A DNA stretch of 64,000 nt from Escherichia coli. Lineage in GTDB: Bacteria; Pseudomonadota; Gammaproteobacteria; Enterobacterales; Enterobacteriaceae. How positions within the stretch are numbered: the stretch's first letter is position 1; the number at the start of each line of letters is the position of its first letter. The position numbers were made by a program, and so were the translations under genes. Shown one piece after another: positions 11,404 through 63,689 of this stretch. The notes beneath the pieces are model-generated. The model was not told where the DNA came from. It did not search any database and saw only the letters and a list, made by a program, of their open reading frames with translations. The DNA lies in assembly GCF_045037415.1 (NCBI RefSeq), contig NZ_CP173438.1; one strand, given 5' to 3'.

Positions 11404-11430
11404 TTTTCGTTGCTACCAATGGAGCGCATT

Positions 11431-11468
11431 GCCTGATGCGACGCTGCGCGTTTTATCAGGCCTACGGT
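11431..11468. repeat. REP element
   Basis: GCCTGATGCGACGCTGCGCGTTTTATCAGGCCTACGG between convergent gpmA and aroG. Confidence 0.7.
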
Positions 11469-16392: not shown

Positions 16393-16468
16393 TGGTGGGT
16401 CGTGCAGGATTCGAACCTGCGACCAATTGATTAAAAGTCAACTGCTCTACCAACTGAGCTAACGACCC
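16393..16468 (-). tRNA. lysQ: tRNA-Lys(UUU)
   Basis: 76-nt exact match to recalled E. coli tRNA-Lys incl. CCA; symbol by position in operon. Confidence 0.93.
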
Positions 16469-16501
16469 CTTGCGGGATTATGCTGCTTTAATCATTCAGG
16501 A

Positions 16502-16577
16502 TGGTGGGTCGTGCAGGATTCGAACCTGCGACCAATTGATTAAAAGTCAACTGCTCTACCAACTGAGCTAACGACCC
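16502..16577 (-). tRNA. lysZ: tRNA-Lys(UUU)
   Basis: identical 76-nt tRNA-Lys copy. Confidence 0.93.
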
Positions 16578-16625
16578 ATACGGGTGTTACCTGAAAGATT
16601 TCTACTCGGAACCAATGTTTAAAAT

Positions 16626-16701
16626 TGGTGGGTCGTGCAGGATTCGAACCTGCGACCAATTGATTAAAAGTCAACTGCTCTACCAACTGAGCTAACGACC
16701 C
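16626..16701 (-). tRNA. lysY: tRNA-Lys(UUU)
   Basis: identical 76-nt tRNA-Lys copy. Confidence 0.93.
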
Positions 16702-16704
16702 GAG

Positions 16705-16780
16705 TGGTGGGTGATGACGGGATCGAACCGCCGACCCCCTCCTTGTAAGGGAGGTGCTCTCCCAGCTGAGCTAATCACCC
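16705..16780 (-). tRNA. valZ: tRNA-Val(UAC)
   Basis: 76-nt match to recalled E. coli tRNA-Val(UAC) incl. CCA; 3-nt spacer to next tRNA. Confidence 0.9.
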
Positions 16781-16831
16781 GATACTGCGCTGGATACTAC
16801 AAACTACTTCCACCGAACCCACCGTAATCAG

Positions 16832-16907
16832 TGGTGGGTCGTGCAGGATTCGAACCTGCGACCAATTGATTAAAAGTCAACTGCTCTACCAACTGAGCTA
16901 ACGACCC
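16832..16907 (-). tRNA. lysW: tRNA-Lys(UUU)
   Basis: identical 76-nt tRNA-Lys copy. Confidence 0.93.
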
Positions 16908-16909
16908 GG

Positions 16910-16985
16910 TGGTGGGTGATGACGGGATCGAACCGCCGACCCCCTCCTTGTAAGGGAGGTGCTCTCCCAGCTGAGCTAATCACCC
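16910..16985 (-). tRNA. valT: tRNA-Val(UAC)
   Basis: 76-nt tRNA-Val copy; 2-nt spacer to lysW. Confidence 0.9.
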
Positions 16986-17020
16986 GATACTACGCTGGAT
17001 ACTACAACTAACTATGTTAG

Positions 17021-17096
17021 TGGTGGGTCGTGCAGGATTCGAACCTGCGACCAATTGATTAAAAGTCAACTGCTCTACCAACTGAGCTAACGACCC
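17021..17096 (-). tRNA. lysT: tRNA-Lys(UUU)
   Basis: identical 76-nt tRNA-Lys copy; first gene of the operon. Confidence 0.93.
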
Positions 17097-23041: not shown

Positions 23042-23077
23042 AAAAATTTATGGGCCTGACTCGGCCCATAAATTTTT
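23042..23077. terminator. bidirectional hairpin terminator between ybgE and ybgC
   Basis: ATTTATGGGCC-tgactc-GGCCCATAAAT flanked by A and T runs. Confidence 0.65.
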
Positions 23078-41068: not shown

Positions 41069-41255
41069 CTGCATTTCTTTTGTAGGCCGGATAAGGCATT
41101 CACGCCGCATCCGGCGCTGTTTGCCTGATGCGACGCTTGCGCGTCTTATCAGGCCTACGGTTTCTGCATTTCTTTTGTAGGCCGGATAAGGCGTTCACGC
41201 CGCATCCGGCACTGGTTGCCTGATGCGACGCTTGTGCGTCTTATCAGGCCTACGG
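41069..41255. repeat. BIME: two tandem ~95-bp copies, each a REP pair
   Basis: 41069-41163 and 41164-41258 near-identical; each holds GCCGGATAAGGCGTTCACGCCGCATCCGGC and GCCTGATGCGACGCTTGCGCGTCTTATCAGGCCTACGG. Confidence 0.85.
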
Positions 41256-45193: not shown

Positions 45194-46477
45194 ATGGCTG
45201 ATACAAAAGCAAAACTCACCCTCAACGGGGACACAGCTGTTGAACTGGATGTGCTGAAAGGCACGCTGGGTCAAGATGTTATTGATATCCGTACTCTCGG
45301 TTCAAAAGGTGTGTTCACCTTTGACCCAGGCTTCACTTCAACCGCATCCTGCGAATCTAAAATTACTTTTATTGATGGTGATGAAGGTATTTTGCTGCAC
45401 CGCGGTTTCCCGATCGATCAGCTGGCGACCGATTCTAACTACCTGGAAGTTTGTTACATCCTGCTGAATGGTGAAAAACCGACTCAGGAACAGTATGACG
45501 AATTTAAAACTACGGTGACCCGTCATACCATGATCCACGAGCAGATTACCCGTCTGTTCCATGCTTTCCGTCGCGACTCGCATCCAATGGCAGTCATGTG
45601 TGGTATTACCGGCGCGCTGGCAGCGTTCTATCACGACTCGCTGGATGTTAACAATCCTCGTCATCGTGAAATTGCCGCGTTCCGCCTGCTGTCAAAAATG
45701 CCGACCATGGCCGCGATGTGTTACAAGTATTCCATTGGTCAGCCATTTGTTTACCCGCGCAACGATCTCTCCTACGCCGGTAACTTCCTGAATATGATGT
45801 TCTCCACACCGTGCGAACCGTATGAAGTTAATCCGATTCTGGAACGTGCTATGGACCGTATTCTGATCCTGCACGCTGACCATGAACAGAACGCCTCCAC
45901 CTCCACCGTGCGTACCGCTGGCTCTTCGGGTGCGAACCCGTTTGCCTGTATCGCAGCAGGTATTGCTTCACTGTGGGGACCTGCGCACGGTGGTGCTAAC
46001 GAAGCGGCGCTGAAAATGCTGGAAGAAATCAGCTCCGTTAAACACATTCCGGAATTTGTTCGTCGTGCGAAAGACAAAAATGATTCTTTCCGCCTGATGG
46101 GCTTCGGTCATCGCGTGTACAAAAACTACGACCCGCGCGCCACCGTAATGCGTGAAACCTGCCATGAAGTGCTGAAAGAGCTGGGCACCAAAGATGACCT
46201 GCTGGAAGTGGCTATGGAGCTGGAAAACATCGCGCTGAACGACCCGTACTTTATCGAGAAAAAACTGTACCCGAACGTCGATTTCTACTCTGGTATCATC
46301 CTGAAAGCGATGGGTATTCCGTCTTCTATGTTCACCGTGATCTTCGCTATGGCACGTACGGTTGGCTGGATCGCCCACTGGAGCGAAATGCACAGTGACG
46401 GTATGAAGATTGCCCGTCCGCGTCAGCTGTATACCGGCTACGCGCAGCGTGATTTTAAGTCGGATATTAAGAAGTAA
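45194..46477 (+). CDS. gltA: citrate synthase
   Basis: 427 aa starting [23 protein letters not shown]; divergent from sdhC across a 708-bp regulatory region. Confidence 0.98.
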
Positions 46478-46494
46478 AAATGACACCGACAAAA

Positions 46495-46519
46495 CCCTGC
46501 GTGGACACGCAGGGTTTTT
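46495..46519. terminator. shared hairpin terminator between convergent gltA and TRAP permease gene
   Basis: CCCTGCGT-ggac-ACGCAGGG followed by TTTTT on the plus strand and a shorter T-run on the minus strand. Confidence 0.7.
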
Positions 46520-46523
46520 AATT

Positions 46524-47834
46524 CTACACCAGCAGCAAAGATATTGCCGGAATATAGGTAATGACCAACAGAAGTAAAATAAGACTGATCAGTAATGGCA
46601 CCGCTTCACGCATAAATTGCCCGACAGAAACCTGTACGGTATTACATACCAGCAGCATCACCGTTCCGACAGGTGGTGATAACGTTCCTAACGATAAGTT
46701 GAGGATCATAATGATGCCAAAATGCACCGGATCAATGCCAAAATGAGCCACCACGGGTTTAAGTAATGGGACTAATATCAGCAGAATGGCACTACCTTCA
46801 AGGAACATGCCAAGCACCAGCAGCAATAGATTGATAATCAATAAAAAGACGTATTTATTATCGGTCAGAGAAGTTACAAACTCCGCAACCGTGATACCTG
46901 CCCGCTCAAGGGAAAATATCCAGCCCAGCGCGGCACTCGCCATAATGATTAACATGACCGATGCCGTGGAACGCGCCGTCTCAGAGAGTGCTGTAAATAC
47001 ATGGCTGATTTTCAGTTCGCGATAAATTACAAAACCAATAAACATTACCAATAATACTGCTACCGCTCCGGCTTCCGTTGGCGTAAAGATATTTGCCCGA
47101 ATACCACCGATAACCGCAACAATTAAGAACAGTGCTGGCCAGGCCTGCACCAGCGCCACTGACACTTCTTTCGGTTTTGGCCAGTGTTCGCTGGAAGGTT
47201 TTAAACCGCGACGAATAGCCACCAACCATACGGTAACGATCAACATGGCGGAGCACAGCAGACCTGGCAGGATCCCGGCCATAAACATGGAGCCGATGGA
47301 GACATCCGCCACCAGTCCGTAAAGGATCAGTGCAATACCCGGTGGAATAATTGGTGTAATCAGCGAACCACTTGCCGTTATCGCCGCCGCAAAGCCACGG
47401 GAATAACCTTTCTGTTCCATTTCCGGCACCATCATGCGCGATAACATTGCGGCATCCGCCAGATTTGAGGCACTGACACCGCCCATCATGGTACTGACCA
47501 GAATATTAGCCCCACCCAGGCCACCGCGCATTCTGCCAATCAACACGTTGGCAATTTGCAAAATACGCGCGGCAATACCGGTATAGCTCATTAACGTGCC
47601 TAATAAGATAAAAAACGGAATAGCTAACAGCGAAGGGGTTTGCGTCGTGGCAATCAAACGCTGAATTGCCACCATTAACGGCACATTTGAATAGCAAAGG
47701 AAGTAGGTCAGAATGCCGCAAAACATCGCCAGCCATACCGGCATATTGATAAATAAACAGACGAACATAAGCGGAATGATCATCAGCCAGTTATCCAGCC
47801 AGCTTCCCGCCAGTAATTCACTCAATGCTGTCAT
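46524..47834 (-). CDS. TRAP transporter large permease subunit (DctM family)
   Basis: 436-aa polytopic membrane protein; 1-nt overlap with upstream DctQ-like gene. Confidence 0.85.
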   Translation of the reverse strand: MTALSELLAGSWLDNWLMIIPLMFVCLFINMPVWLAMFCGILTYFLCYSNVPLMVAIQRLIATTQTPSLLAIPFFILLGTLMSYTGIAARILQIANVLIGRMRGGLGGANILVSTMMGGVSASNLADAAMLSRMMVPEMEQKGYSRGFAAAITASGSLITPIIPPGIALILYGLVADVSIGSMFMAGILPGLLCSAMLIVTVWLVAIRRGLKPSSEHWPKPKEVSVALVQAWPALFLIVAVIGGIRANIFTPTEAGAVAVLLVMFIGFVIYRELKISHVFTALSETARSTASVMLIIMASAALGWIFSLERAGITVAEFVTSLTDNKYVFLLIINLLLLVLGMFLEGSAILLILVPLLKPVVAHFGIDPVHFGIIMILNLSLGTLSPPVGTVMLLVCNTVQVSVGQFMREAVPLLISLILLLLVITYIPAISLLLV

Positions 47835-59538: not shown

Positions 59539-61203
<1,665 letters not shown>

Positions 61204-61217
61204 TAAGCCAGCACCAT

Positions 61218-61250
61218 GCCTGATAAAACGCTCGCTGCGTTTTATCAGGC
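61218..61250. repeat. REP-like perfect palindrome between convergent dtpD and phr
   Basis: 14-bp arms GCCTGATAAAACGC / GCGTTTTATCAGGC with 5-nt loop; overlaps the last codons of phr. Confidence 0.7.
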
Positions 61251-62663
61251 TCCTTTCCTCGCTTCTTCGTACGCTGCCAGCGTTCGCAGCCTTGCCTCTT
61301 TGTGATCGACTATCGGTTGCGGATAATCCAACGTCACACCTGTTTTCTCTGCCCACTTCCACGGCTCATGCACCGCTTTCCCCGGTACATCGCGCAGCTC
61401 CGGTAGCCACTGGCGGATAAATTCGCCTTCGCGGTCAAATTTCTCGCCCTGAGTTGTCGGGTTGAAAATACGAAAATACGGCGCTGCATCAGTACCCGTA
61501 GAAGCGGCCCACTGCCAGCCACCGTTATTAGCTGCCAAATCACCATCAATCAGCTGCGACATGAAATATCGCTCGCCTTCGCGCCAGTCGATCAACAAAT
61601 CTTTCACCAGAAAACTGGCTGTAATCATCCGTAGCCGGTTATGCATCCAGCCAGTGCTGTTAAGCTGACGCATGGCAGCATCGACAATCGGGTATCCCGT
61701 TTTGCCTTCCTGCCAGGCCTTTAAATGGGCGGGATTACTTTGCCACTGTACACGATCCGTCCAGGCAATAAACGGACGATGTTTACACAGCGAAGGATAA
61801 TACGTCATCAAATGGCGGTAGAACTCGCGCCAGATCAGCTCACTAAGCCAGACACTACCGGCTCCACCGTCCAGCGCCTGCGGCTGTTCCGCCAACAAGC
61901 GATGCAAACACTGGCGAGGCGATAACCCGCCCGTTGCCAGGCTGGCGGACAAACGACTGGTGCCTTCTACTGCCGGAAAATCTCGTTGTTGCTCATACTC
62001 TCCGGCACCGTTCTGGCAAAACTGGCGTAATTGCGCAATCGCCGCTTTTTCTTCCACCGGGAAATGCGCAGTATCGAAAGACTGACGAGGATAATTCAGC
62101 GTAATGGATGGCGCGGGATCTATCGCTCCACTACTACGTACTTTTGGCGCAGCGACGCACTCCGGCATCCCTTCCCGCAGCCGTTTCAGCCAGGCATTCT
62201 TAAAAGGCGTAAAGACTTTGTACATCTCATGATTGCCAGTCATCACCGCCCCCGGCGGCAGGATCACGCTGTCATCAAATCCTTCACACACCACGTTACG
62301 CAGCGCTCTTTCAACTTCCACATCCCGCGCCCGCTCATTTACCTCATACTGATAGTTATAAAAAAGATGAGTAACGCGGTTTTCCGCGCACACCTGTTTA
62401 ACTATTTCGACGCTGGCGGCAAAGTCATCCACTTCACGGAACAATAAAGGAATACCTTTTTCCGCCAGCGCGTTTTGCAGCGCATTAAGTTGTGTATTGA
62501 TAAGTTCAGCCTGACGCGGCGACACATTATGCGCCGCCCACTGGCGTGGGGTAGCGATATACAACGCCAGCACGCGTGCAGACGAATTGCGGCAGGCGGC
62601 AGCCAGTGCGAGATTATCGTGCAGACGTAAATCCTGGCGAAACCAGACCAGATGGGTAGTCAT
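61245..62663 (-). CDS. phr: deoxyribodipyrimidine photolyase
   Basis: 472 aa starting MTTHLVWFRQDLRLHDNLALAAAC. Confidence 0.97.
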   Translation of the reverse strand: MTTHLVWFRQDLRLHDNLALAAACRNSSARVLALYIATPRQWAAHNVSPRQAELINTQLNALQNALAEKGIPLLFREVDDFAASVEIVKQVCAENRVTHLFYNYQYEVNERARDVEVERALRNVVCEGFDDSVILPPGAVMTGNHEMYKVFTPFKNAWLKRLREGMPECVAAPKVRSSGAIDPAPSITLNYPRQSFDTAHFPVEEKAAIAQLRQFCQNGAGEYEQQRDFPAVEGTSRLSASLATGGLSPRQCLHRLLAEQPQALDGGAGSVWLSELIWREFYRHLMTYYPSLCKHRPFIAWTDRVQWQSNPAHLKAWQEGKTGYPIVDAAMRQLNSTGWMHNRLRMITASFLVKDLLIDWREGERYFMSQLIDGDLAANNGGWQWAASTGTDAAPYFRIFNPTTQGEKFDREGEFIRQWLPELRDVPGKAVHEPWKWAEKTGVTLDYPQPIVDHKEARLRTLAAYEEARKGA

Positions 62664-63169
62664 AAAACTCCTGCATGGCGCAAGTTAATCACACGCGGCC
62701 AAAGTTCGAAATAACGCTGCCCTGAAAGCCAGGCGTCAGGATAAAGCGCCATATAGTGTTTGATACGCATCAGCGGCGCAAGAAGCGATTGCTCGCCACG
62801 GCGATAACTGTCGATAAGCGCCGCCAGCTGCTGGCGTTCTGTGGAATCAATATGTGGGCGAAAATATCCCTGAACGTGCATCAAAACGTTAGTATGATCA
62901 CGCCGGTTGGCAGGGTGAGAAAGCAAAACAATCACGCGTTGGCGGTACTGGTTGTAATAGTCATCCAGACTTTGCCACCGGTGAATATCAGCCACAAACG
63001 GGCCAAGTTTGCGGTACTCCGGCTGAGAATGCGCCAGAAAGACGAGTTTATAGCGGCTGTGATAATCGAGAAGCGCCCCGCGCGTTAGTCCTCGATCTTT
63101 GAGATTGTGTAACTCATGCAAAGCAAAAATGCGGATAAGGGTGCTGTCATCAAAAAGTTGTTGATTCAT
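62660..63169 (-). CDS. ybgA: DUF1722-family protein
   Basis: 169 aa; stop-start overlap with phr. Confidence 0.93.
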   Translation of the reverse strand: MNQQLFDDSTLIRIFALHELHNLKDRGLTRGALLDYHSRYKLVFLAHSQPEYRKLGPFVADIHRWQSLDDYYNQYRQRVIVLLSHPANRRDHTNVLMHVQGYFRPHIDSTERQQLAALIDSYRRGEQSLLAPLMRIKHYMALYPDAWLSGQRYFELWPRVINLRHAGVL

Positions 63170-63210
63170 TACTGCTCCTGAACGGTTTACAGGAGTAAGT
63201 GTAGACGCCG

Positions 63211-63246
63211 AAAAAAGAAAACCGCCAGCGTTTCCACCGGCGGTTT
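63211..63246 (-). terminator. rho-independent terminator of ybfA
   Basis: AAACCGCC-N12-GGCGGTTT followed by a T-run on the minus strand, between ybfA and ybgA. Confidence 0.65.
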
Positions 63247-63269
63247 TCTTTAAACGTCATGTTTGGCAA

Positions 63270-63476
63270 TCAGTAAAAATCACCGGTTGCCTTTTCGGCC
63301 TGATCCATCCACACCGGTTTATCGCTGGTTTTCGACCAGACGCGGTGCAGGTAGCTATAAAAGCGGGCGCGGTCTTTCCAGAAAAGCATGAAAGGCAGCG
63401 CCAGAACGCCCGCTGCAACCGCACAAGTACGGCGTAAAAAGATAAGCCATGCAGGATATTCTTTGTAGAGTTCCAT
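63270..63476 (-). CDS. ybfA: DUF2517-family small membrane protein
   Basis: 68 aa [16 protein letters not shown]...; adjacent to kdp promoter as in K-12. Confidence 0.9.
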
Positions 63477-63689
63477 ACTTTTCTCCCCCTTTTGTATCTA
63501 CCCGGTGAATAGCACCGGAAAAATGAATTCGTTTATCTGATGAAAATAGTACCGCTGTTTGTGTAATTTTACTACTCATCCGACCACTTATTTTTGCTTA
63601 TTGATGGTTTATTTATATTCACCGTGTAATTAAGTTACATAAAAGTTAAATTAATACTAAACATTAGTTAAATCATTGCTTTTGCCATT

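Follow-up and report, generated by a model that had tools for sequence, protein, structure and literature searches.

The dtpD-phr spacer and its palindrome

The window analysed here (the whole stretch of Escherichia coli DNA under study, 64,000 nt) carries the genes dtpD and phr (phrB, coding for the photolyase) on either side of a short spacer. A previous reading made from the sequence alone had placed a palindrome between these two genes and had taken them to be convergent, which is borne out by the list of open reading frames, with dtpD on the + strand and phr on the - strand. Read along the + strand from the end of dtpD, the spacer has the order GAGTCT TAA taagccagcaccat GCCTGATAAAACGC tcgct GCGTTTTATCAGGC tcctttcctcgc, the features of which are listed in Table 1. 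The palindrome itself is as perfect as had been claimed: the repeat finder returns two 14-nt arms (61218-61231 and 61237-61250) that are 100% complementary, with 14 of 14 positions paired, around a 5-nt loop. Folded as a 41-nt RNA, it gives the same hairpin from either strand, at -24.0 kcal/mol for the + strand and -23.7 kcal/mol for the - strand, with z-scores of -9.1 and -8.0, respectively, and no shuffled sequence was equally stable.

An exhaustive scan of the whole 64-kb window for inverted repeats with perfect arms and loops of 3 to 8 nt found arms of at least 12 nt at only three loci, the dtpD-phr palindrome being one of them, and by our own estimate (64000 x 6 loop sizes / 4^14) a perfect 14-nt arm would be expected about 0.001 times by chance. 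The other two, at 23042-23077 and 46491-46518, have GC cores lying between an A-run and a T-run, which is the look of a bidirectional intrinsic terminator; the second of them is located between convergent ORFs at 45194-46477 (+ strand) and 46524-47834 (- strand).

Table 1. Features of the dtpD-phr region, in window coordinates
Feature	Position	Strand	Remarks
dtpD CDS	59722-61203	+	493 aa; stop TAA at 61201-61203, 14 nt ahead of the stem
REP-homologous unit TGCCTGAT..TTATCAGGC	61217-61250		y-type palindromic unit, iREP orientation on the + strand
Left arm GCCTGATAAAACGC	61218-61231		14 nt, from the repeat finder; AAA where canonical y-REPs have GCG
Loop TCGCT	61232-61236		5 nt
Right arm GCGTTTTATCAGGC	61237-61250		14 nt; on the - strand, phr codon 472 and two in-frame stops
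Second in-frame stop TAA	61242-61244	-	also within the right arm; used by BL21-AI
phr stop TGA	61245-61247	-	within the right arm
phr (phrB) CDS, photolyase	61245-62663	-	472 aa, C-terminus ARKGA
phr last sense codon GCC (Ala472)	61248-61250	-	sole amino acid encoded within the palindrome
Junction of missing long-allele DNA	61250-61251		107-108 bp absent: CTAC tail, linker, inverted z-type REP, y-REP remnant
C-rich, G-poor tract	61251-61450	+ (dtpD-sense)	C/G 1.7; antisense to the phr 3' end

Overlap with the end of phr

On the - strand the right arm reads GCC TGA TAA, that is, Ala472, the stop codon and a second in-frame stop, of which the first two make up the 6 nt that phr has in common with the palindrome. 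In the RefSeq annotation of identical or near-identical genomes phrB ends at the equivalent of 61245, and the annotated stop therefore lies inside the palindrome and not upstream of it. The overlap that the sequence-only reading had described as the final phr codons thus exists, reduced to one sense codon and the TGA, and a repeat does encode that part of the photolyase C-terminus, with no evident consequence for the protein. The main phr cluster of Salmonella enterica also ends in ARKGA, with GCG TGA TA and with no REP there, and the residues that follow ARK differ across genera (G, GA, GG, GK, GT, E, S, GDVT and others), so that these comparisons give no sign of the REP overlap having meaningfully altered Phr. 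The 6-nt overlap is a by-product of where the foot of the REP happens to fall. The phr ends of Salmonella and of the window have the same last residue, the same stop codon and the same two following bases.

The stop codon is not fixed among strains. The phr gene of BL21-AI has TCT instead of TCA at the equivalent of 61245-61247, which turns TGA into AGA, and it consequently ends at the next stop, the REP-borne TAA, with an annotated CDS 3 nt longer; the same change weakens the hairpin to about -16 kcal/mol. E. coli SK1144 has 100% identity to the window over 61000-61500, yet the annotation treats its phrB as a pseudogene with a frameshift, whereas the phr ORF of the window is intact.

A solo y-type REP with a perfect stem

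The sequence-only reading had called the palindrome REP-like. Judged by alignment, it is a solo y-type REP unit, and an allele of the BIME found at the same place in K-12, where the element between dtpD and phr is listed as REP66 (740955-741060; 2026 preprint, supplement). Aligned with the K-12 BIME, the palindrome corresponds base for base to its first y-type unit, and in the alignment with K-12, O157 and E. albertii the junction on the dtpD side is the same. The canonical y-REPs of the window (at 11430, 41122 and 41217) and the y unit of K-12 REP66 have TGCCTGAT, ACGCT and GCGT(C/T)TTATCAGGC in common with it. Of these, the copy at 11430-11466 is itself a solo canonical y-REP, with a right arm GCGTTTTATCAGGC identical to that of the palindrome, that keeps the GCG mismatch and CTAC, while 41085-41250 holds two tandem canonical BIME units (z-type and y-type REPs) and serves as an in-genome reference array.

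The relationship is also visible to a family model. The canonical BIMEs at 41085-41250 score 80 and 87 bits with the Rfam family naRNA4 (RF02564), of which the model derives from REP325, above its gathering score, and the dtpD-phr locus has no Rfam match at gathering thresholds. A match of the palindrome to naRNA4 appears only when thresholds are made permissive, with only the Y half aligning (25 bits, E 0.01, against a gathering score of 59.5). We rejected membership of a known RNA family other than REP, as the REP-derived naRNA4 is the only family that matches, through its Y half and at those permissive thresholds. The REP325/naRNA4 element (yjdM-yjdN) resembles the palindrome in being a REP hairpin transcribed in a 3' UTR and in this alignment of its Y half; it differs in being an array of 12 hairpins between tandem genes, as opposed to a single hairpin between convergent genes.

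Two of the usual hallmarks of a REP are nonetheless missing, and in this respect the term REP-like needs qualification: homology with the K-12 y unit stands, without the stem mismatch, without the GTAG/CTAC tail and with an exact sequence that is single-copy. In the left arm the GCG of canonical copies is replaced by AAA, and in the right arm the C of K-12 by T. The usual two-base mismatch is thereby removed from the stem, and one G-C pair is turned into A-T; the REP stem mismatch was looked for in the palindrome and is absent, all 14 positions being paired. No GTAG/CTAC is found at the foot of the palindrome, its place being taken by TCCT (phr codons), while CTAC is present in every canonical copy of the window. 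There is likewise no BIME pair, that is, no second inverted REP and no linker, the 41-bp spacer containing a single unit. As to the extragenic position usual for REPs, the element lies between convergent genes, 14 nt past the dtpD stop, and extends 6 nt into phr. Canonical REPs fold at -15 to -22 kcal/mol, most of them at -21 to -22, against -24 for the palindrome, and the gain in stability of the perfect stem over most canonical copies is therefore small.

Compared with the canonical y-type REP (the GTAG-tagged substrate of RAYT/TnpAREP), the palindrome has in common the arm and loop-proximal sequence, a length of about 35 nt and a place between convergent genes, at their 3' ends; it is unlike it in that the exact variant occurs once and reaches 6 nt into coding sequence. 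With neither the two-base mismatch nor GTAG/CTAC, it is equivalent to the perfect-palindrome mutant B268TT (PMC3333891). TnpAREP requires both GTAG and the stem mismatch, and it failed to bind or cut such a perfect-palindrome mutant (Ton-Hoang et al., PMC3333891). The copy in the window has neither feature and is thus probably immobile and out of reach of the REP transposase. As for how the stem came to be perfect, the conversion of quasipalindromes into perfect repeats by template-switching during replication is documented in E. coli (PMC7202029, PMC5941160), and this process would be a sufficient explanation.

REPs that overlap the ends of ORFs have been reported in other bacteria, and where a REP lies between convergent genes, its distance to each of the two ORF ends is in most cases below 20 bp (Di Nocera et al. 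2013, PMC3733652). The overlaps described there are mostly multi-codon insertions in other species, as opposed to the one codon and stop seen here. The palindrome is an ordinary repeat-derived RNA hairpin and not a new type of element.

Short and long alleles of the spacer

Among 5426 complete E. coli genomes, 3435 have at this locus the form seen in the window (short allele) and 1977 a longer one (long allele), K-12 and O157:H7 being among the latter. Examples of the short allele are O25b:H4 isolates, an isolate labelled ST38, strain W and BL21. A 501-nt query around the locus has 100% identity to several complete E. coli genomes, and an 80-nt core has an exact match in O25b:H4 isolates. The spacer measures 41 bp in the window against 147-149 bp in K-12 MG1655, O157:H7 and E. 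albertii, where a y-type REP TGCCTGATGCGACGCTTGACGCGTCTTATCAGGCCTAC is followed by a long linker, by an inverted z-type REP and by a locus-specific stretch, GATTGCCTGACGCGTCTGTTAT, which looks like a y-REP with an internal deletion. K-12 REP66 and the window element thus occupy the same locus with the same dtpD-side junction and begin with the same kind of unit, a y-type REP; in K-12 this is followed by linker, inverted z-type REP and y-like remnant within a 149-bp spacer, whereas the window has one unit with a perfect stem. The K-12 phr gene also differs, ending in ARKGK with a TAA stop that lies 29 nt outside the annotated REP66, as opposed to the stop inside the arm in the window.

The palindrome 33-mer is found, with 33/33 or 32/33 bases, in 3249 genomes, once in each and always at phrB. 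Judging from evenly spaced rows of the ranking, an estimated 40% or so of these 3249 genomes keep all 14 pairs, and most of the other carriers have, in the same evenly spaced rows, A for G at 61218, as in strain W. The K-12 segment made up of y unit, linker and z2 is by comparison dispersed, with a median of 13 places per genome. The possibility that the palindrome is a dispersed repeat of its own was rejected, the exact 33-mer being single-copy per genome, and it is therefore not an active repeat family in its own right.

The adjoining sequence varies little among carriers of the short allele: the last 33 nt of phr beside the palindrome (61251-61283) are identical in 3423 genomes and have no match in any other genome. 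As these are nearly all of the 3435 short-allele genomes, the allele and the phr 3' end together constitute one low-diversity haplotype. Over the last 60 nt of phr the window is close to E. albertii (the final 40 or so nt being identical) and has many differences from K-12. A divergent Escherichia genome (recorded as E. coli SCPM-O-B-8794, its phr 90% identical) has the short form with an ARKGT-TGA end. A single scan of the genome collection returned E. albertii with the long form and one divergent Escherichia with the short form; E. fergusonii was not among the genomes returned by that scan.

Both directions of change fit these data, the short form arising from the long one by recombination between two y units, or the long form arising from the short one by BIME amplification. 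Two other routes were considered, of which the first is not supported and the second was rejected. TnpAREP cleaves at C^T, either as CC^TAC in the CTAC tail or at a linker C^T (PMC3333891). For an excision of the 107 bp by the REP transposase, the junction CAGGC|TCC does not match the published C^T sites when compared with the long forms of K-12 and E. albertii. Slippage between direct repeats of the long form, either TGCCTGA or CGCGTCT.TAT, predicts products that are not the short form.

Differences from K-12 are also seen next to the locus. In K-12 the H-repeat gene ybfD is found just upstream of ybgA, and in the window, compared with it over 62660-63500, a 68-aa ORF followed by the kdp genes is found instead, which suggests that the K-12 Rhs/H-repeat island is absent from the window. 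Salmonella has an ORF of the 68-aa type and then kdp, as in the window, the Salmonella ORF being one with DUF2517. Elsewhere in the window, seven tRNA genes are clustered on the - strand at 16396-17096, and 18023-18161 matches the cpoB/ybgF RNA thermometer (RF02782) at 154 bits.

The hairpin and the 3' ends of dtpD and phr transcripts

As the palindrome is located between convergent genes, it would be part of the 3' end of the dtpD mRNA as well as of the phr mRNA, and each of the two transcripts would fold the same -24 kcal/mol hairpin. The RNA polymerase would most likely not be halted by this hairpin alone and would continue past it. Rho would then end transcription in the C-rich antisense sequence beyond the hairpin (for the dtpD direction, as K-12 data suggest), after which 3'-to-5' exonucleases would trim the transcripts back to the hairpin, leaving the 3' ends of both messages fixed and protected. 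We prefer, with a confidence evenly poised between acceptance and doubt, the interpretation in which transcription ends beyond the hairpin, through Rho at least in the dtpD direction, and the hairpin then sets and shields the 3' ends of both messages. A bidirectional transcript-end structure, which is what the sequence-only reading had proposed, is plausible, and agrees with the REP literature and with the unrelated hairpins of like strength in this spacer in other genera.

The composition of the flanking sequence is consistent with such a role for Rho. On the + strand the 200 nt beyond the hairpin have C/G ratios of 1.5 to 2.2 (1.7 for 61245-61450), whereas the corresponding ratios on the - strand are weaker, at 0.9 to 1.7. 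The tract at 61251-61450 has 86% identity, and an equal C/G of 1.7, with a K-12 segment that came up in a screen for Rho binding. There, the Rho-binding peak M_N10_741 overlaps REP66 and a bicyclomycin-sensitive transcript (2026 preprint, supplement table 15, from a published screen), this evidence being for the dtpD direction and for K-12 only, that is, for the long allele. The same preprint describes REP325 as a partial Rho-dependent terminator as well as an mRNA stabiliser, and proposes that REPs between convergent genes act both ways. Against the interpretation preferred here, it reports no detectable Rho dependence for REP fragments of 2 to 4 hairpins, and no genome-wide difference in mRNA half-life associated with terminal REPs (2026 preprint). 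A search of papers and their supplements for published RNA 3' ends of dtpD or phr in a short-allele strain found none.

Selected hairpin or neutral relic

Comparison with other genera has a bearing on whether a hairpin at this position matters. In Salmonella, Superficieibacter and Kluyvera the same spacer, of 38-71 bp, contains unrelated hairpins of -20 to -24 kcal/mol (z -3.0 to -4.6). In Salmonella enterica (two loci) the phr-dtpD spacer is 38 bp long and carries a GC-rich hairpin, GGCCCGGTAG..CTACCGGGCC, of about -24 kcal/mol that is unrelated to REP. The occurrence of unrelated hairpins of similar strength in three other genera argues that a stable stem-loop is wanted at the dtpD-phr spacer whatever its sequence. 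In Pseudocitrobacter (two loci) the spacer is occupied, in the K-12 orientation, by a y-REP, then a long linker TGCAATATATTGAATTTGCAC and an inverted z2 REP; this BIME may be old at the site or may have been inserted independently. In Citrobacter (three loci) and at one further locus, about 0.8-1.1 kb of extra DNA lies between phr and dtpD; no REP was seen at the phr end of these loci, where phr ends in ARKE or ARKG.

The strongest alternative is that the short allele is a neutral relic of REP/BIME rearrangement, its stem perfected by template-switching, harmless and with effects on RNA that are incidental. We regard this as possible rather than probable. Special conservation of the stem was sought in short-allele genomes by means of control 33-mers and was not found, the palindrome being at most as conserved as the adjacent phr coding sequence: exact palindrome words of at least 28 nt occur in 3249 genomes, against 3423 for the identical flanking 33-mer. 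Natural variants in W, BL21, MS20657 and EC28 disrupt or weaken base pairs with no compensating change, and both alleles are frequent (3435 and 1977 genomes). The correction of quasipalindromes is a documented mutational bias of E. coli (PMC7202029, PMC5941160), and terminal REPs are without a global effect on half-life (2026 preprint). Set against this reading are the hairpins of like strength in the same short spacer of three other genera, which are unrelated to the palindrome, and the fact that each departure from the canonical y-REP leaves the pairing intact or makes it better, as does the replacement of a paired G-C by A-T. With no extra conservation, with variants that go uncompensated and with no genome-wide half-life effect, the neutral relic keeps substantial weight.

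Possible translational, terminator and DNA-level roles

Stalling of ribosomes has been reported for REPs located at most 15 nt from a stop codon (Liang et al. 2015, in the summary given by PMC12306157). Both genes fall within this distance, the dtpD stop being 14 nt from the stem and the phr stop inside it, and the hairpin may therefore, as a secondary possibility beside the role preferred above, dampen translation termination of both dtpD and phr. It could then be that the main role of the hairpin is translational, terminating ribosomes being stalled, with cleavage of the mRNA and tmRNA tagging, so that Phr and/or DtpD are kept low. Besides the distances, the tandem stops UGA-UAA in the stem are in keeping with this. 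The K-12 phr stop, however, is 29 nt from REP66, and such control of phr is therefore not conserved across strains; BL21, moreover, tolerates the loss of the TGA. We consider it unlikely that this is the main role.

A bidirectional intrinsic (Rho-independent) terminator, releasing polymerase arriving from either side, is what a strong symmetric stem between convergent genes brings to mind, and 78 REPs are located within previously identified bidirectional terminators (2026 preprint). The tails of the hairpin are TCCTTTCC on the + strand and ATGGTGCT on the - strand; the + strand tail, UCCUUUCCU, is moderately U-rich, while that of the - strand is AUGGUGCUG. There is no U-tract on either side, so that the hairpin is not a bidirectional intrinsic terminator, and a consensus scan of 60700-61800 found no terminator-like site. 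Such termination was rejected as the primary mechanism on these two grounds, and we judge it very improbable. What terminators of this type look like is shown by the palindrome at 46491-46518, with its A-run and T-run between convergent ORFs, and the orthologous K-12 region is a Rho-binding site in a bicyclomycin-sensitive transcript. Bidirectional intrinsic terminators are like the palindrome in providing a symmetric hairpin for two converging transcripts, and unlike it in having A-tract and U-tract flanks.

As far as is known, sites for IHF and gyrase need a BIME. A role in which gyrase, IHF, Pol I or RAYT would bind or cut the DNA of the palindrome, of the sort put forward for BIMEs, scarcely deserves credence. 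The palindrome is by descent a member of the REP/BIME family, and interactions of this kind have been reported for that family (in references given by PMC12306157); it is, however, a single unit with neither partner REP nor linker and lacks the GTAG and stem mismatch needed by RAYT.

Implications

The statement that all E. coli REPs are extragenic is based on K-12 (2026 preprint) and does not hold for the majority allele at the dtpD-phr locus. REP finders tuned to the mismatch and to GTAG will miss the copy described here, and the value of the finding is mainly for annotation; the understanding of the photolyase or of REPs is unchanged by it.

We think it doubtful that the solo hairpin and the full BIME represent a functional polymorphism, in which the short allele would have been domesticated, placed beyond the action of the REP transposase, and retained for the sake of mRNA 3' ends and of a throttled termination of photolyase translation. 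The linker of the long-allele BIME is one that we take to be of the IHF-binding type. If the polymorphism were functional, lineages would differ heritably in their photolyase and DtpD output, with promoters and proteins unchanged. The short allele provides a naturally occurring case of a REP whose stem has been perfected and whose transposase signals have been stripped, and the locus illustrates how REP/BIME turnover gives one gene pair strain-specific 3' UTRs.
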